A stretch of 64,000 nt of DNA from a virus: IMG/VR virus record IMGVR_UViG_3300043788_000169, positions 68,502 to 132,501 of that record; one strand, written 5' to 3'. The notes beneath the pieces were generated by a model. It was not told the origin of the DNA and ran no database searches. It saw only the letters and a program-made list of their open reading frames with translations. The position numbers were made by a program, and so were the translations under genes. This document shows positions 2,716 to 43,956 of the stretch, piece after piece; within the stretch, counting starts at the first letter, position 1; every line of letters starts with the position of its first letter.

Positions 2716-3624
2716 ATGGCCAGTCGCTACTACTCCTCGGTCGCTGTCCCGGGCAACCTGGGAGCCTCGATCTCCAACAGCGCGACCAGCTTCTACATGT
2801 CCACTACCCCTGACGGCTATCCAGGGCAGTTCCCGTTCACGATGTGCCTGGACGGCGGGGAGCCGAACATGGAGCTGGTCTCGGTCACGGGCGGCTCCGG
2901 CACGGCGGGCACCCCGTGGACCTGCACCCGCGGGTTCGACGGCACCACCGCCTCGGCCCACACCGGGGGCGCCGGGGTTTCTCACGACTTCAGCGCCTAC
3001 GACCTGACCACCAGCCGCAGCCACGAGGCGAGCGGTTCCGGCTCGGGCGTGCACGGCCTGCCGGCCAGTGCCTGGTCGACTGCGGCGAATGCCGTGATCA
3101 ACGAGACGGTGCTGAACAACTCGACCACCGCGGTGCAGACCTGGAGTGGCATCCCCGGCACCTACAACCACCTGATGATCCTCGTGCTCGGCCGGCTGAC
3201 GGAGACCTCCGAGCAGACCGACTACATCACCCTGCAGATAAACGGGGACACCGGGGCGAACTACTCCACCTGCCAGATTGAGACCAACAATGTCGGCGGC
3301 ACGCTCAACAGCCCGAACTCGGTGGCCTCCTACGGACAGACGTCGTTCCCGATCGGCCGGCTGACCGCGAGTGGCGGCGGCGGGGCCGCCAACGCGGGCG
3401 CCCTGGTCGCTTACATCCCCTGGTATGCAGGCACCACCTTCAACAAGGTGGTGCAGTCTCAGAGCGGTGGCGGCAACGGCACCAGCGCGCTTGTGGACTG
3501 CCGGATGTTCTGGGGCTTCTACAACCCCACGGTCCAGGCTGCTATCACGTCTCTGTCCATCTCCGCGCCGAGCGGGAGCGATTTCAAGACGGGCACCAGC
3601 TTCGCCCTGCTGGGGGTGAGCTAG
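2716..3624 (+). CDS. Minor tail protein
   Basis: Ser/Thr/Gly-rich; ELV.VT...TRGFDGTTASAH motif typical of actinophage minor tail proteins; tail operon context. Confidence 0.7.
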   Translation: MASRYYSSVAVPGNLGASISNSATSFYMSTTPDGYPGQFPFTMCLDGGEPNMELVSVTGGSGTAGTPWTCTRGFDGTTASAHTGGAGVSHDFSAYDLTTSRSHEASGSGSGVHGLPASAWSTAANAVINETVLNNSTTAVQTWSGIPGTYNHLMILVLGRLTETSEQTDYITLQINGDTGANYSTCQIETNNVGGTLNSPNSVASYGQTSFPIGRLTASGGGGAANAGALVAYIPWYAGTTFNKVVQSQSGGGNGTSALVDCRMFWGFYNPTVQAAITSLSISAPSGSDFKTGTSFALLGVS

Positions 3625-3626
3625 CG

Positions 3627-3863
3627 GTGCATGTCGAGCACATTGTGGACTGCGGCGCGCAGCGCACCAACCACAGTGCGGTAGATGAAGATCTCTCGCC
3701 ACAGCGCATGGCGGAGTTCTCCGTCCCCGGGGAGCTGACGTTCGCTCACATCGAGGATCGCAACCGCCGCCAGCGCGCGGCGCTGGACCGGTTGCAGATG
3801 GCCGCGGTTACCGACGAGCATCTCCGCGACATCCTCATCGTGCTGGGGGTGGAGGACCAGTGA
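3627..3863 (+). CDS. Small tail-associated hypothetical protein
   Basis: 78 aa, tightly packed in the tail operon. Confidence 0.55.
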   Translation: MHVEHIVDCGAQRTNHSAVDEDLSPQRMAEFSVPGELTFAHIEDRNRRQRAALDRLQMAAVTDEHLRDILIVLGVEDQ

Positions 3864-4039
3864 GCGAGCCCAACGTGATCACCGCTGAGACGGAGGAGAT
3901 CACCCTGACGGAGGGAGTGGAGATCGTCCAGCTGGTCCGTCCCGGCCGCCCGTACCCGGCCGACCCGTTCCCCGGCCCCGCCCGCCGGGTCATGGCTGCC
4001 GCGCCGGACCGGGGCCAGGGCTCACGCCCGCGGCGGTAG
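3860..4039 (+). CDS. Small hypothetical protein (59 aa, absent from ORF track)
   Basis: GTGA overlap with the upstream stop; GGAGG upstream; TAG at 4037-4039 just before the next start. Confidence 0.5.
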   Translation: MSEPNVITAETEEITLTEGVEIVQLVRPGRPYPADPFPGPARRVMAAAPDRGQGSRPRR

Positions 4040-4042
4040 CTC

Positions 4043-7000
4043 ATGGCCACAGGAATCGGAACCACCACCCCGAGCATCCCGGAGCTGATCCCGGCCCCGG
4101 TCCAGACCTCCCAGCCAGGCCCCGGCGAGCCCGGTGGCCCTGGCGGCCCTGGCGGGTCAGCAGCACCTGGGCTGGGCTCCGGCTACGAGATAGCTATCCG
4201 TGCCGCCCCGGACTACAACACGCTCATGGCGGTGCTGCCGAGGTACGAGTCGCTTCAGTTCACCAAGATGCTGAACGACAAGGGCTCCGGCTCTGCGGTG
4301 TCCAACCTGGACGACGAGTGGTTCGAGACGGCCACGCTCGCGCTGCCTGCCCCGACCGCCCCGGTGGTCATAGCTCAGGGCAGCTCTGATGCGACAGCTA
4401 ACGTGTTCACCGCCGACGTCGAGACCGCTGCGGTGCAGGGCAGCGCGGTCACGGTCGTGTCCAGTGCGAGCGGGTCGAATACCCCCATCACCTGCGTGGA
4501 TACCGAAGGCAACATCTACCTCAACACCCTCGCCGCGCTGCTGTCCTCCAACCCGTACTTTGAGCAGAACGGCGCCGGGTCGGTAGCCGACTGGGCTGGA
4601 TTCAACTGCACAATTGTCCCTCAGGCGCTGAGCGGGCTGCCGGTGCCGTACGGCGTTCTGCTGACGGTAACCACGGCGGGGTGTGCGTGCGAGGGCAGCC
4701 CGTCCAAGTTCACGATCACACCAGGTGCCTCCTACCTCGTCACTGCGCTGGTCTGGCTGCCGGAAGCGGGCACCGTCGTCCTCGGGGCCGACTGGGATTC
4801 CAGCGGCGGGTCCTACGTCTCGACCAGCACCAGCAGCATCTCCGTGGAGGCGGAGACCTGGACGGCGATCGGGACGGTGATCACGGCCCCGGGCAGTGGT
4901 GTGGGCAAGGCATACCCCCGGTGCGGGTACAGCACCGGGACGGGCGCTGGCACCACCATGCAGCTCACCGCCCTGGCGATGCAGCCCGCGGCCAGCATGC
5001 AGGTCTTCCAGGCCCTGAACATCACCGCGCTGACCCTGAATGATGCGATCAGCGTCACCTACGCGGCCGACGACGCTCAGCAGACCAACCTCATCGCGGT
5101 AAACATGACCGGGATCCAGCCGCAGACCGCGGTCGACGTCGCCGTGGCCGCCTCCGGCACCTCCGCGCACGCCACCGCCTCCGGTACCCCGTCCGAGCTT
5201 GGCGAGCTGGGCCTGTTCTTTGTCAACAATGCCGCGGCTGGTGGCGCTCCCTCGGTGCCTGCGAACTGGAGTGAGCTGACCCAGCTGGCCGGAACCGGGC
5301 GGGGCGAGGCCCAGCGGATGCTGATCGGGCTGTACTCCTACCCGCCGAGCGCCTTCTGGACAGCAGCAATCGATGCAGCGCCGACGACGGGCATCATCAT
5401 CGCCAACGTCGACAGCGGCCCGGGCGCCGGCCAGGAGTCCAACTTCCTGGCGGTCTACCAGGAGGCAGCAGCCGCGGGCATCACCCTGGTCGGCTACGTG
5501 TCCACGAACTATGGCGCGGTGAGCCAGACCAGCCTGCAGAACCAGATTCAGCAGTGGAATGATTACTACGGAATCACTAGCATATTCTTTGATACAGTTA
5601 ACCCCGCTGCGGATTACGTCGACTACTACCAGGAAGCGGTGCAGTATGTGCACGCTCAGCCCGGTGGTGGTGATGCGATAGTCGTCCTCAATCCGGGGTC
5701 TCCGCCGACGCAGGCGCTGTTCGGGATCCTGGGCGAGAACGACATCATCCAGGTCTGTGAAGATACATATGCGAATTTCGCAGGCGACGGCGCGACCGCT
5801 CCCGCGTACCTGCTTGATGAGAACTCCGCGAATATAGCGATCACCTGTTACGACTGCCCGAACAGCACGGACATGAATACCGTGCTCGGGATCGCGGCGA
5901 GCGATTTCAACGCGGGCTGGGTGTGGGTGACAGATGGAACTTTGCCGAACCCGTACGCGAACGAGCCTGCCTACTTCACCACAGAAGTGTCAGCGCTCGC
6001 AGGCACCGGCACGACCGAGCAGTACACCACGGTCTACTACTCCGAGCTGACCAGTGACGCGGCGCAGTCTCCCTCGGCCACCATTACCAGTGCTGCCTGG
6101 CAGGCGCAGCTGCTTACCCTGGAGGGCACCGGCTCGGCACCGGCCTCCACGCTGTGGGATAACGAGCACCTGTGGCAGGTCATGCTCGACGGCATTGTCG
6201 TCTTCGAGTTCTTTGCCGAAACGATAACCGAGCAGCAGGTCGACCAGAGCGAGCAGCGTAACGTCACCACCACTGGCCCCGGAACGATAACCGCATTGTC
6301 GTGGGCTGCTGCGATGCCTCCCGGTTTCCCCAACATCATTTTCAAATGCGATGCAATCCAGGACGGCTTCGCAGAAATTGATGAGAATGGCAACCTGGAG
6401 GTCGACACCAGCCTGTGGAACATCATCAGCCCGACCGACATGGTCACGCTGAATCCGTCCGGCACGCTGCAGCTCACCGCCTCGCAAGATACAACCTACT
6501 GCGGTGCCACTCCCTATGACCTGACCGAGTCGCTGATCTCTGCGCAGATAGCCCCGCTCGGCCAGGGAACCGAGAACAGCACCGACATCACCGTGGCGCT
6601 CGACGGCTCCCAGGTCACGCAGTTCTACATCCAGAGCAACGCCAACGCGGACGACTATATTTTGATGGGAGTTACCGCGGCGGGCATCTACTGCCAGCTT
6701 GGGGATACCGAGTCCGGCCCCCAGACCAAGGAACTAGGCGCCTACAACTCCCAGACCCAGCTGTACTGGCAGATGAGTGCCGACTACCTGGACGCCGACT
6801 CCGGCGCGGTGCAGGTCACCTTCTGGACCTCCGCAGATGGGCAGACGTACACCCCGGTGTGGGTGGTGAACCCGAGCTGGGTGCCCGACAACGTCACAGT
6901 GTTCTTCGCTTGTTCTTACGATCAGAACAACAGCCAGGTGATGAGCATCACCAACGTGAACGGCAATGTCGTCACGCCGAGCAGCAGCGGCAACATCTAC

Positions 7001-9700
7001 TTCGGTGAGCCGATCATGGCTGTCTGGGACTCGATCTTCACCGCGGCGCAGGAGCGCGGCACCATCCCGTTCATCACCACCGCGCTGGACGGGGCGACGG
7101 ACAGCTTCGGCAACCCCTGGACCGACAGCGAGAGCGTGCAGATCGAGAATGGGACCGACCTGTACTCGCTGCTGCAGTCCCACACCGCGATTGTCGACGC
7201 CGACTACATCATGCAGCCCGGCTTCGTGCTGCAGGTGGGCCTGCCGGTGGAGGGCTCGATCACCCTCGGGGTCGACCGCAGCGAGCAGGTGGTCTTCCGC
7301 GAGGGACAGTGGATCCAGCAGAAGCAGTACACCCGCGACCGCAGCCAGATCGCCAACCTCGATGGCGGGGTCAACAGCGACGGCACTACGATCAGCGCCT
7401 CGGACGAGGACTCCATCCTGGAGTGGGGGCAGCGCGAGGGGTGGGTTCAGACCGCGGTCCAGGTCAACCCGCAGTCCATGGAGATCGCTGTCCAGGCGAG
7501 CGTGCAGCAGACCGCGGATGAGGTGGAGAGCTATACCATCCAGGTCGACCCGGCCCAGCCCGGCTGCCGTGCGTGGAAGGACTACAACGTCGGGGACTGG
7601 ATCGGCCTGGAAGCTCCCGGGCCAGAGCCGGGTGGCCCGGACTTCAGCGCGAACTCGGTCTCGGCCGTCCGCGTCACTGCGATTGCCATCTCGGTCGACG
7701 CCACCGGCCTGGTTACCTGCCAGCTCACCCTCATGACCTACCTGCAGTGGCTCCAGGAGCAGCTGCAGTATCTGGTGAACAAGATGGGCGGGCAGTTCAT
7801 CAACTCGCTCGGCACCACCCCGGTCACCAGCTCGGCCAACGGTGTCCCTACTCAGCTGCCGACGATCTTCGCCCCCAACATCAACGGGCTCAACGGGGCG
7901 AATGTGCTTGGCACCACAGGCATCCCGAACGGTGCGCAGCTGGTCTATAACGCCATCACCGGCCAGTGGCAGGCCGCGTCCAGCCAGGACCCGGTAACCG
8001 GGTCCACGCTCAGCCCGACCGGCGCGAACCTGTCGACGCTGCAGTACAGCACGCCGCAGGCGAGCCAGGGCAACCTGATCGCCTCGATCAGCAACGCCGG
8101 CGGCACCGACCCGACCGGGAACGCCTACCTGCCTGGCGTGGTGAGCTACGGCTCGACCGAGAGCCAGACCATCCAGCTCTACATGGGTCAGGTCGCGATC
8201 GGGCAGGCACCAGGAACCCAGATCGTGCTCAACCCCGATGCTGACCAGGTCTTCAACATCACCACCGCGATCGCCGGGACGCTGCAGGCCATCGCTGAGT
8301 TCACCACCAACGACACGAACGAGGTGCTGCCGGGAGTCGCGGGCTCGCTGGTGCTCAACCCGGGGGCCTCCCAGAAGATGGCCACCGCACTGACCAGCCC
8401 GCTGAACGCCAACTCCGCGGCGTGCGTGGTGCTGGAGACCGAGAACGATGCGGGCACCGACACCCCGGTGATCACCTTCGGTCAGGTCACCACCCCGGAC
8501 GACTCGACGTTCGTCTTCACCCCGATTGCCACGCTCACCCCGTGGGCGTTCCTGCTCTACGGTGGCTCGGGCGGCACGGTCGTGGAGACGATCGACGGCC
8601 CGTCTTCCGGCAACTGGCCGGTGCCCGCCACGGTCTCGGTGGTCAAGGCTGAGGTCTGGGGCATGGCCGCGGGAGCCGGCGGCTCGAATCACGGCTTCTG
8701 GACCGTCCAGGCGGGCGGTGGCTCGGGTGGTGGCGGGTACTCCTGTGAGCCGGCCCTGGCGGTCACGCCGGGCGGTAACTGCCCGTATGTGCTGCCAGCC
8801 GGCGGGGCCGGTGGCGTCGGGTCGACGGGCTCGCCCGGCGGGGCTGCTGATGCCACGTTCCAGGGCAGTGCGGCCACGGTCACTGCGCACGGCGGCCTGC
8901 CGGGAGCCGGTGCCGCCTCGCCCGGCAACGGCCAGGGTGGCGATGGGGCTGCGGCCTCGGGCAACACGATCAGCTATCCCGGCGGCCAGGGTGCAACCGG
9001 CGGATATAACGATGGTGGCGGTGGCGGTGGTGCCGCCGGCACGGGCGGCCCTGGTGGCGGGGGCGCGATCAATGGCGGTGGCTCGCCTGGCAGTGGTGGT
9101 GGCAAGGGCGGAAATGGTGGCGTGTCCGGAGGTCCCGGAAGCGGCAGTAACGGTTCCAGTCCGGGTGGCGGGGCTGGTGGCGGGGCGGGCACGTCGGCCA
9201 GCGGGACAGTGGATGGCGGCAGCGGCGGGGCTGCGCGGGCCCGGGTCACCTATACCACCGGGGCCCCGGACATCATGGCCAGCTTCGCGGCCGCCGCGGG
9301 CACCGACCAGTTCGGCAACACCTACCCCGAAGGCACGCTGCTGGCCGGGGCCGATGCCGGATGGACCTACGTCGGCACGGGCGGAGCCCCCGGGTTCGGC
9401 TCGGGCTGGAGCAACGCAGGCAGCGGGAACGCTGATCTGGCGTACCGGATGGTCGGCGCCCCGCACAACTGCGTGCTCATCCTCGGGTATGTGACCAACG
9501 GGACGGCGGCCAATACGGCGTCGATCTTCACTCTGCCTACCGCTTACCGCCCGGCCAGCCAGCAGATCTTCCCATCCGTCGAGAACGGAGGGACCTACGG
9601 CAACTCGGTGGTTGTGGAGACCAGCGGTGCGGTGAAGATGTTCAACAGCGCTGGCACCGGGAACTACGCGGTCTTCGCTATGGTCAGCCTGGACATTTAG
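4043..9700 (+). CDS. Large minor tail/hub protein with CBM-like and spherulin-4 (GH135)-like inserts and Gly-rich C-terminus
   Basis: Tal-like segments (FTKMLNDKGSGS; WGQREG; DYNVGDWI); spherulin-4 motifs LYSYP, NVDSGPG, LVGYVSTNYG, IFFD, VVLNPG at about 5318-5995; Gly-rich tract near 8.6-9.2 kb. Confidence 0.8.
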   Translation: MATGIGTTTPSIPELIPAPVQTSQPGPGEPGGPGGPGGSAAPGLGSGYEIAIRAAPDYNTLMAVLPRYESLQFTKMLNDKGSGSAVSNLDDEWFETATLALPAPTAPVVIAQGSSDATANVFTADVETAAVQGSAVTVVSSASGSNTPITCVDTEGNIYLNTLAALLSSNPYFEQNGAGSVADWAGFNCTIVPQALSGLPVPYGVLLTVTTAGCACEGSPSKFTITPGASYLVTALVWLPEAGTVVLGADWDSSGGSYVSTSTSSISVEAETWTAIGTVITAPGSGVGKAYPRCGYSTGTGAGTTMQLTALAMQPAASMQVFQALNITALTLNDAISVTYAADDAQQTNLIAVNMTGIQPQTAVDVAVAASGTSAHATASGTPSELGELGLFFVNNAAAGGAPSVPANWSELTQLAGTGRGEAQRMLIGLYSYPPSAFWTAAIDAAPTTGIIIANVDSGPGAGQESNFLAVYQEAAAAGITLVGYVSTNYGAVSQTSLQNQIQQWNDYYGITSIFFDTVNPAADYVDYYQEAVQYVHAQPGGGDAIVVLNPGSPPTQALFGILGENDIIQVCEDTYANFAGDGATAPAYLLDENSANIAITCYDCPNSTDMNTVLGIAASDFNAGWVWVTDGTLPNPYANEPAYFTTEVSALAGTGTTEQYTTVYYSELTSDAAQSPSATITSAAWQAQLLTLEGTGSAPASTLWDNEHLWQVMLDGIVVFEFFAETITEQQVDQSEQRNVTTTGPGTITALSWAAAMPPGFPNIIFKCDAIQDGFAEIDENGNLEVDTSLWNIISPTDMVTLNPSGTLQLTASQDTTYCGATPYDLTESLISAQIAPLGQGTENSTDITVALDGSQVTQFYIQSNANADDYILMGVTAAGIYCQLGDTESGPQTKELGAYNSQTQLYWQMSADYLDADSGAVQVTFWTSADGQTYTPVWVVNPSWVPDNVTVFFACSYDQNNSQVMSITNVNGNVVTPSSSGNIYFGEPIMAVWDSIFTAAQERGTIPFITTALDGATDSFGNPWTDSESVQIENGTDLYSLLQSHTAIVDADYIMQPGFVLQVGLPVEGSITLGVDRSEQVVFREGQWIQQKQYTRDRSQIANLDGGVNSDGTTISASDEDSILEWGQREGWVQTAVQVNPQSMEIAVQASVQQTADEVESYTIQVDPAQPGCRAWKDYNVGDWIGLEAPGPEPGGPDFSANSVSAVRVTAIAISVDATGLVTCQLTLMTYLQWLQEQLQYLVNKMGGQFINSLGTTPVTSSANGVPTQLPTIFAPNINGLNGANVLGTTGIPNGAQLVYNAITGQWQAASSQDPVTGSTLSPTGANLSTLQYSTPQASQGNLIASISNAGGTDPTGNAYLPGVVSYGSTESQTIQLYMGQVAIGQAPGTQIVLNPDADQVFNITTAIAGTLQAIAEFTTNDTNEVLPGVAGSLVLNPGASQKMATALTSPLNANSAACVVLETENDAGTDTPVITFGQVTTPDDSTFVFTPIATLTPWAFLLYGGSGGTVVETIDGPSSGNWPVPATVSVVKAEVWGMAAGAGGSNHGFWTVQAGGGSGGGGYSCEPALAVTPGGNCPYVLPAGGAGGVGSTGSPGGAADATFQGSAATVTAHGGLPGAGAASPGNGQGGDGAAASGNTISYPGGQGATGGYNDGGGGGGAAGTGGPGGGGAINGGGSPGSGGGKGGNGGVSGGPGSGSNGSSPGGGAGGGAGTSASGTVDGGSGGAARARVTYTTGAPDIMASFAAAAGTDQFGNTYPEGTLLAGADAGWTYVGTGGAPGFGSGWSNAGSGNADLAYRMVGAPHNCVLILGYVTNGTAANTASIFTLPTAYRPASQQIFPSVENGGTYGNSVVVETSGAVKMFNSAGTGNYAVFAMVSLDI

Positions 9701-34524: not shown

Positions 34525-34531
34525 GTCCTGT

Positions 34532-34598
34532 GCCTCCGTTTGGTGGGCTGGTTGGGTTGTGCATGCTCAGACTCCCAATGCAGTAGACACGTGTCTAC
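34532..34598 (-). promoter_or_regulatory. Palindrome copy 14 (perfect GTAGACACGTGTCTAC) + leader
   Basis: Palindrome 34583-34598; TAGACA-N17-GAGTCT; AGCCCACCAAACGGAGGC. Confidence 0.75.
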
Positions 34599-34734
34599 CC
34601 GTTAAGCCTCTATTGTTATCAACCTGTGACCTGCCCAAATGATCAGCCTCCGTTTAGCGCCAGGCGCCTGGCCAGCCACGACTCACCATCCGCCGGCTAG
34701 CCCGGTACTCAATTAGATGGGCACAGCCTCCGTT

Positions 34735-34965
34735 TAGCTCCCCCGTTCTCACACCCCGATAGTCCCACCCAATGAGACACCCCCCGCGCCGCAGCTCAGC
34801 TCACGCCGCAGCCATGCCGCACAGCTCCCCGTGCGCCGCGCTCAGCTCCCCCCACAGCCACGCTCAGCCCCTGCCCTGTGTCAGGACATGGCCAGCCACG
34901 CACAGACGCTCTCAGCCCCGCGGGCGCACAGCTCAGCTCCCCGCGCCCGTCCGTCCGGCTCCCCC
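34735..34965 (+). repeat. Cluster of CAGCTC(CCC)-like direct repeats
   Basis: Copies or variants at 34735, 34792, 34822, 34843, 34863, 34911, 34929/34934, 34957. Confidence 0.55.
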
Positions 34966-35090
34966 TGCCGCCGGCTAGGCGTGCGCCCCCGCCGCGGCCG
35001 CCCCCCGTCGTGCGGCGCACGCGGGTTAGGAGTCCCGTTCCTCCGCCCCCGCACTGACCGGCGCCTTCCATTAACAGATGCACCCGCGAC

Positions 35091-35311
35091 GTCACAGCAC
35101 ATCACCCGTCCCCGCGGGATGCAGGGTTTGATGACCGGGGGAAGTGATTGTGATGTGTGATGGAGCCCCCTGACCTGTGATAAGACCAGGAAAGGTGGTC
35201 ACTGTGATGTGGCGGGTCACAGTACCCCCCAGATGATGTCACATGCCGCTGACCTGGGCGCATCACTATCTTGTGATGGGGGACATCACAGCCGCCGCCG
35301 GGTGGTGTGAT
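35091..35311. repeat. Array of TGTGAY hexamers
   Basis: TGTGAT at 35149, 35156, 35176, 35203, 35272, 35306; RTCACA at 35091, 35216, 35238, 35285. Confidence 0.75.
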
Positions 35312-35450
35312 CTGGCGCCTGGCCGGTAATAATGGCAGGGCGTGCCCCAGGGAGCCTGCGGAACGATGATCAGCGTCCCCGTTCCGGCAAACCAGGACCG
35401 TTACCCCCTGGGGCCGCCCCGCCAGGCGAAACGGAAGGCGGAGAAGTCCC

Positions 35451-35750: not shown

Positions 35751-36067
35751 ACGTTAAGACAGGACAGCAGCCGGAGCCGGGCAGGTCACGGTGGCAGGAC
35801 CGCGTCGACCCGGCTGTTGCCGCCGCCGGCGAACTGGACGGCCCGCTGCCCATCCGCCAGCACCCGGACAGCCCTCCCGGCCCCGCCGTCGGGGCGTACT
35901 GGATGCACGGGAAGATCCTCGTCGTCGGCATCTACCCGGACGAGACCCACGGCACCGTGTACCGCTGGGACGCCGGCCTGGACGCCGCGCCCACGGTCAT
36001 CCACTGGGAAGCCCCGCACTGCGCTGACGACGAGTGCGGCTCCCCGTGTGTGCACAGCCGTGGCTAG
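35747..36067 (+). CDS. Hypothetical protein
   Basis: GTGA coupling (MNVKTGQ...). Confidence 0.55.
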   Translation: MNVKTGQQPEPGRSRWQDRVDPAVAAAGELDGPLPIRQHPDSPPGPAVGAYWMHGKILVVGIYPDETHGTVYRWDAGLDAAPTVIHWEAPHCADDECGSPCVHSRG

Positions 36068-36644
36068 GCGGCGCCGCAGGAGGTTCCAGGCGGGCTGGCT
36101 GAGCTGGGCGGTGCCGGTGGCCGGGGGTGTGTGGATCTGGACGTCCCTGCACGATCCTGGACGCCAAGCGGGCATGTGGACGATCGAGGGCGCCGCGGTG
36201 CTGGCGTGGCCGCTGGCGCTGACCGCGGTGTTCTACGTGCTGCCCGCGACTGCGATGTCTGTGGTGCCCAGAGGGCTGCGCAGGTGGTGGCGCAGGGGCT
36301 ACACCGTGCGGCCTGCGATTCCTGGCTTTATCCGCCGGGCTGTGATGTCTGCCGACTCTCACAGGTGCGTGCACTGCGGGCAGTGGGTGGATCTGCAGCT
36401 CGACCACGTCTTCCCCTGGAGCCTCGGCGGCCTGAGCGTGCTGTTTAACCTGATGGTGCTGTGCGGGACCTGCAACCGGGTCAAGTCCAACTACTGGCGC
36501 TTCCGCTCGGGCCATGAGATCTACCGGGCGTTCGACAACGCCGGCAACATCCGGATGGCACGGGAGATCCTGAGGTCGGAGAAGCTGGCGAGGATCAGCC
36601 CGCTGCGGTGGTACCGCGCGGCGCTGGCCCTGGGGGTGATCTAG
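36060..36644 (+). CDS. HNH endonuclease with N-terminal transmembrane helices
   Basis: CVHCG...LDHVFPWSLGG...NL.VLC..CN..KS; two hydrophobic segments N-terminal; GTG 36060. Confidence 0.8.
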   Translation: MARRRRRRFQAGWLSWAVPVAGGVWIWTSLHDPGRQAGMWTIEGAAVLAWPLALTAVFYVLPATAMSVVPRGLRRWWRRGYTVRPAIPGFIRRAVMSADSHRCVHCGQWVDLQLDHVFPWSLGGLSVLFNLMVLCGTCNRVKSNYWRFRSGHEIYRAFDNAGNIRMAREILRSEKLARISPLRWYRAALALGVI

Positions 36645-36968
36645 GTGGTTCTGGCATTCGGCGCGCTGGCTGCCCTGCTGGTCTCTGCGGTGGCGGGTGC
36701 AGCTTTCGCGGGGATCCGGCACGCGAGCCGGACGGAGGAGAAGCCGGCCAGCCAGCAGGTCGTGTACCTCTACCACCGCCGGCTCGCCCGCGGCGAGGAG
36801 TTCGGCGTCTTCGAGAGCCACGACGATGCGAAGGCTGCAGCTGCCGGCAAGCACGGCTATCTGGTCGAGGTCATCAGCTGCACGGTCATCCCGGCTGGTT
36901 CCCGGCACAAAGGCCACCGCCGGGCACGCCGTCCGGCAGACTGGATGGCAAAGCAGGTGAAGCCGTGA
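36645..36968 (+). CDS. Membrane-anchored hypothetical protein
   Basis: N-terminal TM helix. Confidence 0.55.
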   Translation: MVLAFGALAALLVSAVAGAAFAGIRHASRTEEKPASQQVVYLYHRRLARGEEFGVFESHDDAKAAAAGKHGYLVEVISCTVIPAGSRHKGHRRARRPADWMAKQVKP

Positions 36969-37264
36969 TAGACGACCGGATGTTTGATGACCCCGTATGG
37001 CCGCGCCGCGTCCCCCAGACGGCCCAGGGGGCGTGGCTGGCTTACCGGCGGCAGCGGCGCAGGCGCATCCTGCGGGATGCTGTCACCGTGCCGCTGTGGT
37101 GCCTGGATGCCACGCTGGGCGGGGTGAGCCTCTCCGTGGCGCTGACAGCCGCCACCGGGGTCTATCTCGGTGCGCTGTTCGAGATGCCGCTGTGGCTGGT
37201 CTGCACCATCCTGTTCGTGGCCAGCGTCCTGCCCGCGCCCCCGGATCACACCTCACAGCAGTGA
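36965..37264 (+). CDS. Membrane hypothetical protein
   Basis: GTGA coupling at 36965; two C-terminal TM segments. Confidence 0.55.
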   Translation: MIDDRMFDDPVWPRRVPQTAQGAWLAYRRQRRRRILRDAVTVPLWCLDATLGGVSLSVALTAATGVYLGALFEMPLWLVCTILFVASVLPAPPDHTSQQ

Positions 37265-37288
37265 TCTGGCCAGCTCAGCGGTGTGACA

Positions 37289-39322
37289 TCACTGCTGGGG
37301 CGGAGGCGGCGTCTTCGGGTACCAGCGGCCGTTCTTGCTGGCGATCAGCTCAGCGTCGCGGTCCTTGCCCAGCTCACGCTGGATGTGCGCGCGGTCGACC
37401 CCGATCCCTTCTTTCTTGAGGATCGTGAAGATCTCGCTGGTCGCGATGCCCAGCAGCGCGCGCTCGGCAATCAGCGCGTAGGCGCGCAGCTTCCACGCCG
37501 GGGCGTTGCCCTGCGGGGTGTATCCCTGGGCGAAGGTGGACAGGTCGGCCAGGGTGTCGCCCATCATCTCCTGGAACTCCGCCAGCTGCGCACGCCTCTG
37601 TTCCTCGCGGTCGATCACCGCGGTGGCTGCGGTGGTGCGAGCCGGGGTGGCCGGGGGCTCGGGAGCCAGGCTCTGGAACAGCTCGGAGCGCGTCCACCGC
37701 TCGGTGTAGTCGCTGCCCAGCACCGCGAGGTCGGCCGCGTCAAAGACTGGCCGTATGACCGAGCAGCGGGCCGCGATCCGGTCGACCTTCGCGCGGTCCT
37801 CGGGGTGCTCGTCGCCTGGGTCGAGCCGGAAGAACTTCCACACCTTCAGCTTCCGGTCACGGTCGCCCATCCGCCAGATGAGTCCGGTGCCGACGTGGGC
37901 CAGGCGGGAGATCGCCTTGGCCGCCGGGTCGGAGTCCGGCACCGCAGAGCGCGCGTCCATCTCCGTCATCTGGCCGAGGGTTATCCTCAGCCCGCACTGG
38001 CTCTTGAGGTCGCCGGACCCGGCCTGGGAAACGGTTGGCCGCTGTGTGGTCCAGATTGGGTCGATGGCCGAGGGCCGGCCTTTCCGGGTGATGTCGTTGG
38101 CCCAGGCGACCATCTGGACGTTGGAGACGCCGGCCAGCTGCTGCTTCTCGCGCGGGGCGTCGAGCATGAAAATGTCAGCCACCTCGTCGCCCAGAACCAT
38201 CACGGCCGGCTTGGCCCGGGACGGCACGAGCTTGGTCCGGCGCATGCTGGCGTTCTCCTCCCGGCGCCCCATCACGAGCCGGTCGGCTGCCTTGAACATC
38301 AGGTACGCCTCTTCGCGGGTGGTGGCCACCCAGTCGATGCACGGGCGCAGGCCCTTGCCCCCGTTGTTGAGTACCTCGTCGTTGATCCATGGCTGGATCC
38401 AGGGGCCCGACAGGGAGCCGCCGCCGAGGTCGACACACCAGACGATGACGTCTTCGCATGCGGAGAACTGGGCGATCAGGACGTTGAGAAGATTGCTCTT
38501 GCCCCAGCCTCGCAGGCCGGTCAGGAACGTCGCTACCTCGCGGAACAGGAGGCGGCCCAGCTCACCGATGGCTGCCATGCCGACCGGGATGGGCTTGGTG
38601 ATGGTGAGGACTTCGTCGTGCTCGGGGAACGGCACGGTCTCCGCAAAGATGTCTTCCTCGTTGAGGGTCATGATGGCTTCGCCACCATGCTTGCCTCCCT
38701 CGAAGGTGATCGCCCCCGGGTCCATCTTCAGCGGGATGCAGAGCTTCTCCACACAGGACCGCAGGGTGTTCAGGGTGACCGAGCCGTCCGTCGGTAGGCG
38801 CAGGTACACGATGCGGTTGCCCCGGGATTCCTCGATCAGGGTGACCTGGATGTTCGTCAGGCCGATCCGGGTGAAGGCCGCGATGATCTTGCGCCGTGCC
38901 GCCGCTGCGGCGAACGTTGCCACGCGCTCGCTTGCCTGGCGGCTTTCCATATCGTGGCGTTCCCAGACTAGGCCGCCGGCGACAATCACCGCCCCGACAA
39001 CCGCGACCAGAGAAACCAACGCCGGCCAGTGCCACACGCCGGTCAGCTTCGCATACACCAGCCACCCCGGAACAGTGACCGCGACCGCCAGGGAGCAAAT
39101 GACGACCGAGGAGGACTTCGACCGGATCGAGATCCCGGTCGCAATTGAGACGGAGAGCACGAGCGCGAGCGCCCCTGCCGGGAACGCGTGGATCTTGGTG
39201 AGAGCGAACAGGAACAGGGCCACGCCCACAGCCAGCCCGGTCTCGATCATGTGCGTCCACACATGACGAGGTGCCGGGTCAAGGGACTTCGCCGGGACGG
39301 GCTGGCTGCGGGTCGTGGTCAT
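37289..39322 (-). CDS. traB: TraB-like FtsK/SpoIIIE conjugative DNA translocase
   Basis: N-terminal TM helices; Walker A GLRGWGKS; VDLGGG; Walker B VLGDEVAD; RKGR...TTQRPT; C-terminal winged helix. Confidence 0.85.
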   Translation of the reverse strand: MTTTRSQPVPAKSLDPAPRHVWTHMIETGLAVGVALFLFALTKIHAFPAGALALVLSVSIATGISIRSKSSSVVICSLAVAVTVPGWLVYAKLTGVWHWPALVSLVAVVGAVIVAGGLVWERHDMESRQASERVATFAAAAARRKIIAAFTRIGLTNIQVTLIEESRGNRIVYLRLPTDGSVTLNTLRSCVEKLCIPLKMDPGAITFEGGKHGGEAIMTLNEEDIFAETVPFPEHDEVLTITKPIPVGMAAIGELGRLLFREVATFLTGLRGWGKSNLLNVLIAQFSACEDVIVWCVDLGGGSLSGPWIQPWINDEVLNNGGKGLRPCIDWVATTREEAYLMFKAADRLVMGRREENASMRRTKLVPSRAKPAVMVLGDEVADIFMLDAPREKQQLAGVSNVQMVAWANDITRKGRPSAIDPIWTTQRPTVSQAGSGDLKSQCGLRITLGQMTEMDARSAVPDSDPAAKAISRLAHVGTGLIWRMGDRDRKLKVWKFFRLDPGDEHPEDRAKVDRIAARCSVIRPVFDAADLAVLGSDYTERWTRSELFQSLAPEPPATPARTTAATAVIDREEQRRAQLAEFQEMMGDTLADLSTFAQGYTPQGNAPAWKLRAYALIAERALLGIATSEIFTILKKEGIGVDRAHIQRELGKDRDAELIASKNGRWYPKTPPPPQQ

Positions 39323-39332
39323 TGTGTGCCTC

Positions 39333-41084
39333 CTAGCCGTTCAGCCACATGTGGTGTGCCGAGCGGTGTGTCTGGAACGCGTCGGCCGCCGCGTCCCCGG
39401 TGCTGGACAGAGCCGACGCGTACTCCCTCAGGCTTTCGATGAACGCCTGGTGGATATGCTCGTCTGTCATCCCGTCCGCCGCGGTGCGGATTGCCTTCGC
39501 GATGACGCCAGGCAGCTCGGCCATCTGCCGGGCCCAGGTGTCCAGATCGGAGCCGCTGGCCGGGTGGAACGCGGCAATGTGGTCATGGACGGCCTCCTCG
39601 ACCGCCTCGATTCCTGCCATAGGGCCTCCTCTTGTTGATGGTGCTCGCTGCCTGCGCACCTGTGGCGCCTGCAGCCGTGGTGCCGGAGCGGGTGCCGGCC
39701 TCGACGTTCCCTGGGTGGGAGCTGGGGCCGGGGCTGGCGCCGCAGCGGGCTTCTGGCTCTCCCGCCTGGCGCGCTCGCGCTCTTTGCGTTCCTTCCTCAT
39801 GCGCTCGTTCCAGATCTGCTGCCAGCGGCGCCCGAGCTGGTTTCCGTAGTGCAGCCCCGGAATCCGCCGTGGCTGGACCTGCTGGGGCTCTCCCAGCCTC
39901 GGGACCGGACGCCACTGGCCCTTGCGCTGCGCCTTGCGCAGTTTGTGCCTGCGGTACAGCTGGCGAAGCCCGGCCACTGCAGCGATGGGAGCCAGCAGCT
40001 TGCTGGTCCAGCGCTTCCGTGCCTGGCTGCGCAGCTGCTTGCCCCGTGCCCTTCGCTGATTCCGGGTCTGGGTTCGCATCTGCCTGATCTGGCGCCGCAT
40101 CTGCCGGCGCTGGGCCCTGGACTGGCCGCGCAGCTGCTTGCCTCGCTGCCTGCGCAGCTGGCGGCCGTGGCCTTTGGCTCCCGGGCCCCACCGGACCTGA
40201 GGAGCCGCTGGCCGGGCCGATCCGGGGCTGTGCCGCCGGAGCCTTCCCGGAACCAGCCGGCGCAGTGTCTTGCGCGTACGCCCTGGCTTGGGCGTGGCCG
40301 TGCCCGGGGGCTTTGCCCCAGCTGGCCGCAGGCCGCGGGGACGGCTGCGCGGGCGACCGCCCGCTCCTGGCCGTCCTCCTGGCCCCCCGGTGGCCCGTCG
40401 CCGGGCTGGGATGAGCCTCCTGAGCCCACCTCGCGGCCGGCTGCTGGTGCCGGGACGGTGACCGGTACCCGGCCGTCCTCCGCCTGGACGGGATCCCGCC
40501 GGCCTGTGCGGCAGGAACCGCCGCAGACCCCGGCCGCCCGCACCGGTACCTGTGCCGGTGCGCCGTCGACCCGCGCCCGGACCAGTTCCCGTACGGCGCC
40601 TTCCGCTCCCCAGACCGCCGCCTGGGGACAGAGTGCGCCTGCGCGAGCGCCCGGACGATCCGGAAGCGCCTGACCCGGAGCGCTTGCCCCGTCCCAGGCC
40701 CAGACCGCCGCGCCCTGATCCGCCGCCGGACCGCCGGCCACCGCCCGCACCGCGCGAGCGGCCGCCAGAGCCGAGCTTGGGCAGTGCCCGCCCGCCCGAG
40801 GAGGACCGGCGGACGGACCGCCGTTCCCTGCGGGACGAGCCCGGAGGACGTGCGAAGTGCCTCCGGATACGCGGGTACTGCCAGATCCCGACTCCGCCGG
40901 CCCCGGCTGCCCCGGTCCCAGCCGCTGCCATCTCCACCGGGCCTGCGCCGAAACCGTGGACAGCTCCGACCACGGTTGCGATGCCCCCCAGCAGGTAGAG
41001 CAGCGGTCTGCGGCCCCGGACATGTCCGGGGCGCTGCTCTGGGCCTGCACGCGGCTCTTCATCGAGGGTCTCTTCATCAGCCAC
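39333..41084 (-). CDS. TraA-like protein: TM N-terminus, Arg/Gly-rich tract, helical C-terminal domain
   Basis: Directly upstream of traB; C-terminal domain ending AFQTHRSAH; internal GAGGAGG-ATG at 39620. Confidence 0.6.
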   Translation of the reverse strand: MADEETLDEEPRAGPEQRPGHVRGRRPLLYLLGGIATVVGAVHGFGAGPVEMAAAGTGAAGAGGVGIWQYPRIRRHFARPPGSSRRERRSVRRSSSGGRALPKLGSGGRSRGAGGGRRSGGGSGRGGLGLGRGKRSGSGASGSSGRSRRRTLSPGGGLGSGRRRTGTGPGAGRRRTGTGTGAGGRGLRRFLPHRPAGSRPGGGRPGTGHRPGTSSRPRGGLRRLIPARRRATGGPGGRPGAGGRPRSRPRGLRPAGAKPPGTATPKPGRTRKTLRRLVPGRLRRHSPGSARPAAPQVRWGPGAKGHGRQLRRQRGKQLRGQSRAQRRQMRRQIRQMRTQTRNQRRARGKQLRSQARKRWTSKLLAPIAAVAGLRQLYRRHKLRKAQRKGQWRPVPRLGEPQQVQPRRIPGLHYGNQLGRRWQQIWNERMRKERKERERARRESQKPAAAPAPAPAPTQGTSRPAPAPAPRLQAPQVRRQRAPSTRGGPMAGIEAVEEAVHDHIAAFHPASGSDLDTWARQMAELPGVIAKAIRTAADGMTDEHIHQAFIESLREYASALSSTGDAAADAFQTHRSAHHMWLNG

Positions 41085-41850
41085 TAGCCACCTCCTGTGC
41101 CATTCCTCGTGCTGCTGCCAGCACCTGCCTTGCGATGTGACGACTGCTCAGGCCGTACGCTTCGCGGAGTCCCCGCTCAGTGAAGCTCGCGCCCTTGCTG
41201 ATTTCCTTGGAGATTTCTTGCACGAGCTGGCGCATCGCCGGGTCGGTGTCGAGCTTCGGCTTCGGGCCGCGCTTCGCGTGGATGTCGACCACGTTCTTCT
41301 CGTGTGGCTTCTCGGCGCGCTCGGTCACCACCGCCGGCCGCTTCGGCTTAGGCTGCCTGGCCAGCTCCTCGGCCGCCCTGGCGGTGGCCACAGCGTCCTT
41401 GACCAGGCCGAGGCCAAAGCCAAGTGCGATGGTGGCAGCGAGCGGGGCGATGGCGCTGCCAAGCTTCACGGCGACGCCGGCGTGCAGTCCATCGTGCACA
41501 GCGTTTCCCAGGACCGACGATGCCAGAGCGCCGGTAGTCACGACCCACGCCCAGCCGCGGGTGCGCCACCGGGTGTCTCTGCGCAGGGCACACAGGAACA
41601 GCCGCAGTTCTCCCATGGCTATGAGCCAGTCAATTATGATGGGATATCCAGCAGCCCATGCCCCGCGAAGATGAAGGTAGGTATAACCGAACTCGAACAG
41701 CCCTCGGTAGGACTCCGCAAAAGCCCAGGACGTCGCTGAAACGATAATGACAGACAGACCCCATAGAGCAATGGGGTCAGCGCGCTGAAGCGTCCTGCTC
41801 AGCCTGCCTGTCTGCGCTGCGCTGCGGATCTTTCCCATCCTGCCGGCCAT
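41077..41850 (-). CDS. DUF2637/Spd-like membrane protein with C-terminal HTH-like region
   Basis: AFAESY.GL...AW...PIIID...S..GNAVH...IAPLA pattern; start at 41850 with GGAGG. Confidence 0.7.
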   Translation of the reverse strand: MAGRMGKIRSAAQTGRLSRTLQRADPIALWGLSVIIVSATSWAFAESYRGLFEFGYTYLHLRGAWAAGYPIIIDWLIAMGELRLFLCALRRDTRWRTRGWAWVVTTGALASSVLGNAVHDGLHAGVAVKLGSAIAPLAATIALGFGLGLVKDAVATARAAEELARQPKPKRPAVVTERAEKPHEKNVVDIHAKRGPKPKLDTDPAMRQLVQEISKEISKGASFTERGLREAYGLSSRHIARQVLAAARGMAQEVASG

Positions 41851-42034
41851 CCCGGACCCTCCAGGGTTCGTAGTCGGGTGGTTACAGCTCTCGGTGCGAG
41901 TTACTGTAGCCATAACGATTGTGGAGCGCGATTGTTCCTGCGTATGCTGGCCTGTTCGGTGTTTGCCTTTGACACAGTGCTGGCCCTCGCCAGTTAGATG
42001 GACGCACTTATGCCTACGGCGTCGTGGCCTGCCG

Positions 42035-42430
42035 ATGAACGCCTTCATGGACAGGAACCTAAGCCGTCTGCTCCAGACGGGGCACTCGATTCCCGCAGAT
42101 CTCCAGCAAGACGACACCGGCCCGCAGGTAGACGCAGCGGCGGCCGGGTGGGCACGGGTGCGCCAGATCCGCGGTACGCAGGCGGATCCGCGGATGTCCC
42201 GGGTGCAGACTCCGTCCCCGGAGCCAGGGCGGCCGCCGGTCAACCACGCGCTGAGGCAGTTCCTGGCCACCGGCTCCTCGGCACCTCCGGGTGTGCGTGC
42301 CACCGGCCGCACGCCGCAGGCTCCCCGCGAGGTGCCGCCTGCCAAGGAAGACGGCCCGTGGACCGGCCCCGGTTCAGCGGCGGCCGCGGTCCCGGTTGGC
42401 TTGGAGCAGGCGATGGGGCAGGATCGGTAG
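42035..42430 (+). CDS. Pro/Ala-rich hypothetical protein
   Basis: MNAFMDRNL start; divergent from the tra cluster. Confidence 0.4.
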   Translation: MNAFMDRNLSRLLQTGHSIPADLQQDDTGPQVDAAAAGWARVRQIRGTQADPRMSRVQTPSPEPGRPPVNHALRQFLATGSSAPPGVRATGRTPQAPREVPPAKEDGPWTGPGSAAAAVPVGLEQAMGQDR

Positions 42431-42760
42431 CTGCCCCGTAATAGGGTCAGGTGCGGCGGTCAGGGAGGCCCGAGGATCTTGCCGCCGCACCGCAGATGTC
42501 TCAGGCACGACAGCTGTCCTGCGCCCGCCAGAGGCTGGGCGCGGTCCCGAGCCCGGAGTCTGAGACGCGGAGACGAGGGAGGGGCCTTTAAGCAGGTCCC
42601 CTGTAGGTCCCTCCCGACTCTCGGCGCCGGAAGATCACGACTTGGCAGCTCCCCCTTTTCGGTCTTGTCATTTTCTGGACACGACCGGTAGCCTCCAGCC
42701 GATAAGAGACGCCCTTGAGGCGCAGGTCACCACGTCTTGCACCTCGGCTAGGGGGCGTTC

Positions 42761-43102
42761 ATGAATGCTGCTGCGAAGGTCCGGCACGAGCCGGCCGTCT
42801 ACTTCGTCACGGTCCTGGGCACGCTCGTCGCGCTCATCGTGGCGTTCGCCCATCTCTCCCAGACCGATGCCGCCTATCTCGGCATGCTGGTTACCGGGCT
42901 GGGCACGATCATTACCGCCCTGCTGGCCCAGCCGCGCCACGTCGCGGTCATCGGCGGGGCAGCCGCTGACATCCTGCAGTCCCTCGTGCTGTTCAAGATT
43001 CACCTGAGCAGCGGGGAGCAGGCTGCGATCCTCCAGGCGGTGGCGCTGCTCACTGGCTATCTGGCGATGCGGCCGAACCTCACGCCCGACCACAGCGACT
43101 GA
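42761..43102 (+). CDS. Holin-like membrane protein
   Basis: EPA...LS..(E)QAAI...R..LTP pattern of actinophage holins; about 4 TM with internal duplication. Confidence 0.65.
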   Translation: MNAAAKVRHEPAVYFVTVLGTLVALIVAFAHLSQTDAAYLGMLVTGLGTIITALLAQPRHVAVIGGAAADILQSLVLFKIHLSSGEQAAILQAVALLTGYLAMRPNLTPDHSD

Positions 43103-43126
43103 TCCGGGCGGAGCGGGGACCAGCAC

Positions 43127-43855
43127 ATGATGCTCATCGGTGGTACTTGCGTTTCCCAGGAACAGGCCGTCCATGCCCTCGACGTCCTGCGCGAAAGCCC
43201 TGGGATGATGGTCCGGCAGCCTCTCCAGCGGGCCGGGAACCCGCTGGCGGCCTGCGACTACCACGCGGCCGCTGCGCCGTTCCGTCCCCGGCCCCAGGAC
43301 GTGCCTGCGGCCGGGCGGGGCGCTGCCGGGCGGCACCTGACCAAGCCCGCGTTCGTGCTGGCGATCGAGACAGCTCTGGCTCTCGATCGCCAGGCGGCCG
43401 AGCGCAAAGCCGAGCTGGAGCGGGCGGTGGCCGCCCTGCAGCCGCCCGTGTCCCGTGAGGATGTCGACGCGGCTATGGCGGCCTTCGCCGTTGATTGCTC
43501 TTACGTGACCTCGATGGCCAGCAACGCCGTCGCGGTGCTGCGCAAGCGCTACGCCGCGGGCAGGAGGGTTGCCCTCCGCGCGGCCTCTCAGGCGGCCGTG
43601 GCGCTGTGCTCCAGCCGCCCGGGTGCGTTCCGGTGCGCGGCGGTCGCGCCGTGCGGGACGGGCGACTGCAGGCTCGCCCGCGGGGTGCTGGCGGGACTCG
43701 ACGTCCCGGCGGTCAGGGAAGTGCGCGGCCCGGCGCTGGCCCGGCCCGGCAATCACGTGGCGGCCGGGGACCGGTTCGCGCCTGATGTCATGCTCGACCC
43801 CCTGCTGGAGCGGCAGCCCTGGACCGCTGGCGGTGGCCTGGCTGTCGCCGTATAG
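43127..43855 (+). CDS. Hypothetical protein sharing a domain with the sigma-like protein at 56124
   Basis: IGG...ALDVLRESPGMMVRQPL..AG.PLA; Cys cluster in the C-terminal half. Confidence 0.65.
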   Translation: MMLIGGTCVSQEQAVHALDVLRESPGMMVRQPLQRAGNPLAACDYHAAAAPFRPRPQDVPAAGRGAAGRHLTKPAFVLAIETALALDRQAAERKAELERAVAALQPPVSREDVDAAMAAFAVDCSYVTSMASNAVAVLRKRYAAGRRVALRAASQAAVALCSSRPGAFRCAAVAPCGTGDCRLARGVLAGLDVPAVREVRGPALARPGNHVAAGDRFAPDVMLDPLLERQPWTAGGGLAVAV

Positions 43856-43923
43856 TGGCCGGTGCCTAACACCCACCCCGGTGTGCGGCGGTCCAGCCCC
43901 AGCAGGCGAGCAGGGCTGATGGG

Positions 43924-43956
43924 CAGAAGGCCGGGACTCGGACTCCCGGCCTTCTG
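43924..43956. terminator. Hairpin
   Basis: CAGAAGGCCGGGA / TCCCGGCCTTCTG 13-bp stem. Confidence 0.6.

Follow-up and report, generated by a model that had tools for sequence, protein, structure and literature searches.

The closest described relatives of the system reported here are the Tra and TraB proteins of Streptomyces plasmids (pIJ101 and pJV1, and pSVH1, which we know from the literature alone). In these proteins an FtsK-like motor lies between N-terminal transmembrane (TM) helices and a C-terminal winged helix, and the homologous plasmid modules are described in the same sources as working in transfer between cells (PMC4447253, PMC3583192). TraB and Spd proteins are described, in passages on intramycelial spreading, as forming a translocation complex. 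The idea that phage DNA can spread without particles is already in print, and it is less novel here because three lines of work have been published: a passage in Thoma et al. (2015) speculates on phage DNA spreading, plasmid-phages such as pFP4 are said in one account to "conjugate as episomal DNA" (PMC4170104), and FtsK-like genes, listed without a functional test in several newly described Streptomyces phages, are said there to occur in many other actinobacteriophages. Here we describe a three-gene operon at positions 37289–41850, minus strand, of the window, a 64,000-nucleotide stretch at the end of one 132,501-bp viral contig with 66.8% G+C, probably from a phage of soil actinomycetes (IMG/VR record IMGVR_UViG_3300043788_000169, positions 68,502–132,501). 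The genes encode a DUF2637 membrane protein, a partner protein with a C-terminal three-helix domain, and a TraB/FtsK-like membrane translocase for double-stranded DNA (dsDNA). We read them as an operon that belongs to the phage and is inherited vertically, homologous to the DUF2637/partner/TraB-type modules of actinomycete conjugative plasmids.

The genes are co-oriented, tightly coupled, and form one unit. Gene choice in this high-GC DNA was guided by the GC content at codon positions. The DUF2637 gene (41077–41850, minus strand, 257 amino acids) starts at ATG 41850; in the 166 codons that the open frame adds before this ATG, GC is distributed as expected for a shadow frame. The partner gene (39333–41084, minus strand, 583 amino acids) starts with a GTG and overlaps the stop of the DUF2637 gene by 8 nt, and the translocase gene (37289–39322, minus strand, 677 amino acids) starts with an ATG 10 nt past the stop of the partner gene. 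A GGAGG site precedes each of the three starts, and the arrangement is one of translational coupling. The DUF2637 protein passes the gathering cut-off of Pfam PF10935 (26.1 bits against 22.8). By hydropathy it has three TM-like segments, and its C terminus is a basic tail. It is 82% identical to its counterpart in a related contig, L003, and a BLAST search with it against phages and plasmids returned no match. Among other loci, PF10935 is passed in L003 (27.2 bits) and L005 (71.0 bits) and is just missed, at 18–22 bits, in L008, L010, L011, and gene 98 of Streptomyces phage Hiyaa; the tested open reading frames (ORFs) of L004, L006, L007, L009, and Thermobifida phage P1312 gave nothing.

The partner protein matches no Pfam, PHROG, or NCBIfam family and has an odd composition (18.7% Arg, 16.6% Gly), so the coding status of its gene was tested by comparison with L003, a contig of 88–89% nucleotide identity. 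Substitutions are biased to the third codon position in most 150-nt bins, and the indel totals per bin are divisible by three in 11 of 12 bins. These data show that the middle ORF is a real gene. Its product has a single N-terminal TM-like segment (residues 28–46), a stretch of about 395 residues rich in Arg, Gly, Pro, and Ser with a net charge of +102 (residues 76–470), and a C-terminal part of ordinary composition that holds the three-helix domain (about residues 491–582).

The translocase was compared with known families and structures. It matches PHROG 31069, "FtsK/SpoIIIE-like protein", at E 9.5e-33, and a search of solved structures with a profile built from 27 homologues matches the FtsK motor at E 6e-6. 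An AlphaFold model computed from the 27-homologue alignment (mean predicted local distance difference test score, pLDDT, of 82.3) has four N-terminal helices (residues 20–40, 46–68, 71–94, and 99–152) that are also TM-like by hydropathy, a mixed alpha/beta domain, and a RecA-type core. Three helices and a hairpin at the C terminus make up a winged helix at about residues 609–669. The best Foldseek matches among solved structures are TcpA, the coupling protein of pCW3 (E 4e-14), FtsK motor domains (E 9e-14; target-based TM-scores reach 0.71), and EccC. The Walker A motif GxxGxGKS (residues 269–276) and the Walker B residues DE (379–380) are conserved, and G272, G274, K275, and E380 are invariant across the family. 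Two homologues (L039, 9866–13189, and protein P0037) are about 1000–1100 residues long and contain a LAGLIDADG domain, which suggests an intein within the motor.

Profile comparison places this protein with the plasmid pumps. In hhalign, the translocase alignment (A1) matched pIJ101 Tra with a probability of 96.8% (E 2.9e-10) and pJV1 TraB with a probability of 98.2% (E 3.9e-14), and the NCBIfam model plasmid_TraB is the best named model for six of eight related translocases, with scores of 28–69 bits against a cut-off of 800. The window protein has the same order of TM helices, motor, and winged helix as the Streptomyces proteins. Unlike them, it is carried by a tailed phage, it is only about 18–20% identical to pIJ101 Tra and pJV1 TraB, and searches of the window phage found neither a clt site nor a GntR regulator beside it. 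The gene order is also that of plasmid modules. A 54.7-kb plasmid of S. longwoodensis carries a DUF2637 gene, a gene for a 702-residue protein, and a translocase gene in the same order; pDSM40587, pSQ10, pFQ12, and pADI95-16c have the same pair of middle gene and translocase, in pDSM40587 with a DUF2637 gene farther upstream. RefSeq annotates the proteins that head the module on two Streptomyces plasmids as DUF2637 proteins. The actinomycete plasmid modules thus share the gene order and the C-terminal three-helix domain of the middle protein, which is present in two copies on pDSM40587 and the S. longwoodensis plasmid, whereas their translocases are 24–30% identical to the window protein and fall in other clades.

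An earlier note, made from the letters of the window, had called this locus a Streptomyces-type conjugation module consisting of a DUF2637/Spd-like membrane protein, a TraA-like protein, and an intact-looking FtsK/SpoIIIE ATPase with N-terminal TM segments and a C-terminal winged helix. The co-oriented cluster itself is borne out, at the coordinates given there, by the gene starts and the coding evidence, the DUF2637 assignment by the Pfam score and the three TM-like segments, the ATPase by the model, the Foldseek matches, and the Walker motifs, and the kinship with plasmid transfer modules by the shared gene order, the middle-gene domain, and the alignments with pIJ101 Tra and pJV1 TraB. The names borrowed from Streptomyces plasmids did not hold. 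pJV1 TraA, after which the gene ahead of traB is named (pJV1/pSN22), has no similarity to the partner domain (hhalign against the partner-domain profile, A2, probability 0.3%); all that the two have in common is their place ahead of the pump gene. pIJ101 SpdB, the one Spd protein compared, shows neither a DUF2637 match (E<=0.01) nor profile similarity (hhalign of alignment A3 against SpdB, probability 0.35%). "Streptomyces-type" is likewise unsupported; the nearest cellular relatives of the translocase are in Streptosporangiaceae and in metagenome-assembled genomes (MAGs) of unclassified Actinomycetota.

The three-helix domain of the partner protein accompanies this type of translocase almost everywhere we looked. 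Single-sequence phmmer searches of a small set found it in acidic proteins of 114 amino acids encoded directly upstream of the translocase homologues of genome loci (E 1e-10 to 1e-5), and a profile (A2) was built from 40 sequences. With this profile the domain is found upstream of the translocase gene and on its strand in eight of nine viral loci, two of them with weak E-values; in L006 it is on the other strand. Of the 45 genome loci, 40 have it in that position, and four of the other five have their match at a contig end. It is present in all seven plasmid loci scanned and directly upstream of the translocase in the phages P1312 and Hiyaa. Among 1.84 billion proteins it occurs in 888 representative clusters at E<=0.001, either standing alone or ending long proteins. 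The domain is modeled as a three-helix bundle (pLDDT 86.8); a fold search of the PDB with this model found nothing at E<=0.001, and no Pfam or NCBIfam model matches the domain. The partner domain is a concrete new lead, offering a way into the assembly of one-protein dsDNA conjugation pumps. The Hiyaa locus (L002, MK279841) has a 651-residue ORF at 3348–5303 on the plus strand that ends in the partner domain and lies directly upstream of the translocase gene (gene 102). At 3348–5303 the record instead annotates gene 100, on the minus strand, and a small gene 101, probably through a miscall of the strand in DNA rich in Arg and Gly codons.

Residency of the operon in the phage lineage was examined by collinearity and junction continuity. 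L003, a 141,724-bp contig from another assembly, is collinear with window positions 37089–43935 at 88–89% nucleotide identity, both junctions included, and its flanking genes match the window from 27.6 to 50.5 kb. Contigs from a soil run, which may be the source sample, tile the region, with one piece covering 37256–41441 and others extending on both sides through 30-base overlaps; the tiling has a small allelic bubble at 37094–37285. Runs X2–X4 covered only scattered pieces. The GC content of the operon, 0.67–0.70, is near the 0.668 of the genome. The collinearity with L003, the tiling, and the unremarkable GC content make a chimera or a fresh insertion unlikely. A passenger origin, in which the genes are an assembly chimera or the remnant of a recently inserted plasmid or actinomycete integrative and conjugative element (AICE), could be read from the orientation of the operon, which opposes the plus-strand genes on both sides, and from the related modules on plasmids. 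It is largely refuted by the continuity of both junctions and the GC content, by a translocase clade made up of viral contigs and metagenome proteins alone (described below), and by the failure to find an integrase, a Rep, or att-like repeats, and we regard it as highly improbable. Local repeat searches at the ends of the operon found no flanking or att-like repeats. An AICE is defined by Int, Rep, and Tra together between flanking att sites, in the wording of the definition given by Ghinet et al. (2011, PMC3218068); AICE identity was rejected on the missing repeats and on the missing integrase and Rep families among the 78 ORFs of the window and the 63 scanned in the rest of the contig. A DNA search of window positions 36000–43000 against phage records gave no match. 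The closest translocase homologues are 50–91% identical and lie on contigs of up to 139–142 kb.

Two quick maximum-likelihood trees (IQ-TREE, LG+G4, SH-aLRT supports only; 52 and 51 rows, 634 columns) were computed from 12 of the 44 homologues, eight of nine viral loci, 17 of 45 genome loci, eight plasmid rows, an 86-kb Streptomyces element (L059), two cultured phages, and three chromosomal FtsK proteins. The window protein is in a clade of 14 rows with a support of 99 in both trees; the clade holds six IMG/VR loci and seven metagenome proteins and no plasmid or chromosomal row. Its sister group consists of 12 chromosomal MAG loci (support 87/89, joint node 98/92). P1312 and Hiyaa cluster with small plasmids (support 99), L005 and L008 are a further viral group, and the chromosomal FtsK rows are on a separate branch (support 100). 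Long branches make the placement of pIJ101 Tra and pJV1 TraB unstable, and pJV1 TraB joins the FtsK outgroup in one tree. The earlier note had named placement relative to chromosomal FtsK, synteny in related phage genomes, and read coverage across the junctions as checks on its suggestion that the phage may have domesticated the module. Chromosomal FtsK is on a separate branch, L003 is collinear, and soil-run contigs tile both junctions. "Domesticated" fits a clade whose rows are all viral contigs or metagenome proteins, and it fits the diverged relative L003, which keeps the operon in place.

The homology and gene linkage lead us to propose tentatively, at a little less than an even chance, that the operon pushes phage dsDNA across septa or cell envelopes. 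The translocase would be a membrane-embedded hexameric pump whose winged helix would select phage DNA at a recognition site. The membrane-anchored partner, with its polycationic tail of about 400 residues and its three-helix domain, may dock on or assist the pump and hold DNA or the cell wall, and the DUF2637 protein would be the membrane component. Such a complex could drive replicating phage dsDNA through hyphal cross-walls, sporulation septa, or cell envelopes, and a single infection could then reach adjoining compartments without virions. If true, phage spread in mycelial bacteria would not rely on particles and receptors alone, and plaque growth, developmental containment, and resistance in Streptomyces-like hosts would be read differently.

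Several results weigh against this proposal. The translocase scores below the cut-off of Pfam FtsK_SpoIIIE (PF01580; 15.8 against 24 bits), and no NCBIfam model matches it at E<=0.01, including plasmid_TraB (NF041214), with its cut-off of 800 bits. On plasmids, a clt locus consists of direct or inverted repeats that lie at the 3' end of the translocase gene or next to it and are bound by the winged helix. A clt-like array was not found beyond chance in 36500–37800, in 41800–42800, or in a genome-wide scan for clustered 8-mers, searches that would leave a degenerate or distant site possible. Local k-mer enrichment and strand-skewed or over-represented 7- and 8-mers gave nothing convincing and no polar genome 8-mer; the enrichments within the middle gene come from its repetitive Arg/Gly codons. 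No GntR or other helix-turn-helix family matched among the 78 window ORFs or the possible ORF at 42035–42430, which leaves the module without a divergent GntR-type kil-override regulator of the KorA/TraR type. Filamentous growth of the host is an assumption. Finally, translocases of this type sit in non-mobile chromosomal contexts, so the pump type need not serve conjugation, and the functional reading is tempered by this.

The chromosomal contexts are two-gene cassettes (L013–L050, for example L017, 9451–11695) that encode the 114-residue acidic three-helix protein and a TraB-like membrane translocase. Seven genome loci were scanned (130 ORFs within about 10 kb); the neighbors are metabolic and regulatory genes, and neither an integrase nor a Rep was found among these ORFs. 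L017 and L048, two of the seven, have the same neighbors, with Ppx/GppA upstream and a nitroreductase downstream, and hints of mobile elements are limited to a weak match to a tail protein in L016, at a distance of 9 kb, and an insertion sequence (IS)-type fragment in L039. The idea that the cassette is a SmeA-SffA pair was dropped on the features of the 114-residue partners, with no SffA sequence in the comparison: they are acidic, rich in Asp and Glu, and have at most one weak hydrophobic segment by a crude hydropathy count, which is not what a small membrane protein would show. The chromosomal sister clade and its non-mobile contexts speak for a different function, in which the target of the pump would be the development or the DNA of the host, for example chromosome segregation at sporulation septa in the manner of FtsK and SffA paralogues; it would delay sporulation or trap phage DNA in spores rather than spread DNA between hyphae. 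A WhiB protein is encoded by the same phage, and the phage genes ftsK, parB, and ssgA are treated as possible tools for manipulating development in parts of two publications (PMC10117723, PMC13587820). The window protein is nevertheless far from chromosomal FtsK, both by its separate branch and by the absence of an FtsK_gamma match in Pfam, and it shares its architecture and its partner genes with plasmid transfer modules, which makes a role in host development unlikely.

The setting of the operon is that of a large tailed phage. Pfam scans of 78 window ORFs identified an SLT domain, a K1-lyase_C tailspike domain, WhiB, DnaB, PolA, a clamp-loader subunit, and a SNF2 helicase, and a PHROG match adds a holin; the 63 ORFs of the other half of the contig include a Mu-like portal, a major capsid protein, a head decoration protein, a sliding clamp, and a clamp loader. 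The statement of the earlier note that the module shares its molecule with a tail module and a phage replisome is confirmed by the K1-lyase_C, DnaB, PolA, clamp-loader, capsid, and portal genes, and its failure to see an integrase, Rep, or TraR/KorA regulator nearby agrees with these scans. No integrase, Rep, ParAB, or GntR regulator was detected in either half (E<=0.01 for the window, E<=1e-4 for the other half), an absence that is unproven given the many ORFs that match no family. The phage appears to lack lysogeny and plasmid functions. The operon is located between the lysis genes and the replication genes and runs opposite to the plus-strand genes that flank it on both sides. This location, together with a membrane-anchored dsDNA motor that has a winged helix and a partner whose tail carries a charge of +102, would also suit the handling of the phage's own DNA within one cell, either in drawing in the 132-kb genome after injection or in holding replicating genomes at the membrane and partitioning them there. 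A pump of this kind is missing from most phages, and the homologous plasmid modules serve intercellular transfer; we consider a purely intracellular role quite unlikely.

The flanks of eight viral loci were also searched. All eight translocases match PHROG 31069, and the genes near them include endolysins, a primase, an integrase (L005), and a superinfection-exclusion gene (L010). The last of these, 4 kb from its translocase, and the category to which PHROGs assigns the family ("moron, auxiliary metabolic gene and host takeover") raise the question of whether the membrane complex blocks other phages or plasmids or ejects their DNA. PADLOC found no known defense family, returning just a weak P-loop match for the translocase (mad8, E 4e-4) and nothing for its two partner genes, and the module is kept across many phage lineages with plasmid-type partners, so that exclusion or conflict has a low probability in our estimate.

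The proposed transfer of phage DNA has a precedent in the plasmid-phages (pZL12, pFP4, and the terminase-bearing "plasmids" of 86–99 kb), which likewise combine virion genes and a tra module on one element. The window phage differs from them in its size of 132.5 kb, its own replisome, and its 31 tRNA genes, and in that no partition, Rep, or integrase genes were detected. L059, a circular 86-kb record filed as S. albidoflavus "plasmid unnamed2", has a terminase adjoining the module and encodes a partner-domain protein and a translocase; it looks like an extrachromosomal phage, that is, a plasmid-phage. L059 and the window share 27.5% identity in their translocases. Translocase matches like that of L059 also occur in five other Streptomyces records, 87–99 kb long. 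The annotated actinophage proteins of P1312, Hiyaa, Galactica, Spocter, and Keanu belong to the same PHROG 31069 but are only 23–29% identical to the window translocase, and those of P1312 and Hiyaa group with plasmid translocases outside the window clade. A broader scheme can be drawn from these comparisons. A large phage that apparently lacks lysogeny and plasmid functions might drive its replicating genome through cross-walls into compartments or spores by means of a TraB-type pump and a polycationic, membrane-anchored partner, a route of infection independent of virions and bypassing receptor resistance, with the three-helix domain acting as a general adaptor on plasmids, phages, and chromosomes. 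We hold the scheme as a whole to be doubtful.

The region upstream of the operon (41851–42700, no strand assigned) is a candidate control region. Positions 41950–42400 are unusually well conserved relative to L003, with 5–9 substitutions per 150 nt compared with 12–47 in the bins within the three genes. This segment overlaps a possible divergent ORF of 131 amino acids on the plus strand (42035–42430), whose plus-frame GC pattern is 0.75/0.60/0.82 and which has no credible Pfam match. A sigma-70-type promoter was not found in the control region.

Three other features of the contig were recorded. A cluster of 31 tRNA genes lies at 15.6–20.4 kb of the contig, outside the window (L062/L063), and is the main reason for the strong strand skew of GGTTCGA in the genome. 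At window positions 4043–9700 a tail-region protein of 1885 amino acids contains a Spherulin4 domain (Pfam, E 1e-33), which is unusual in phage tail proteins. Window positions 34525–35450 are a stretch of about 900 bp without genes that is dense in short repeats: CCTCCGTTT occurs three times, with two copies extending to CAGCCTCCGTTTAGC, AGCTCCCC occurs four times in 207 bp, and TGTGAT occurs six times. Many words resembling GTGATG/CATCAC are concentrated at about 35100–35300, and the repeat-dense stretch could be an origin or a regulatory hub.

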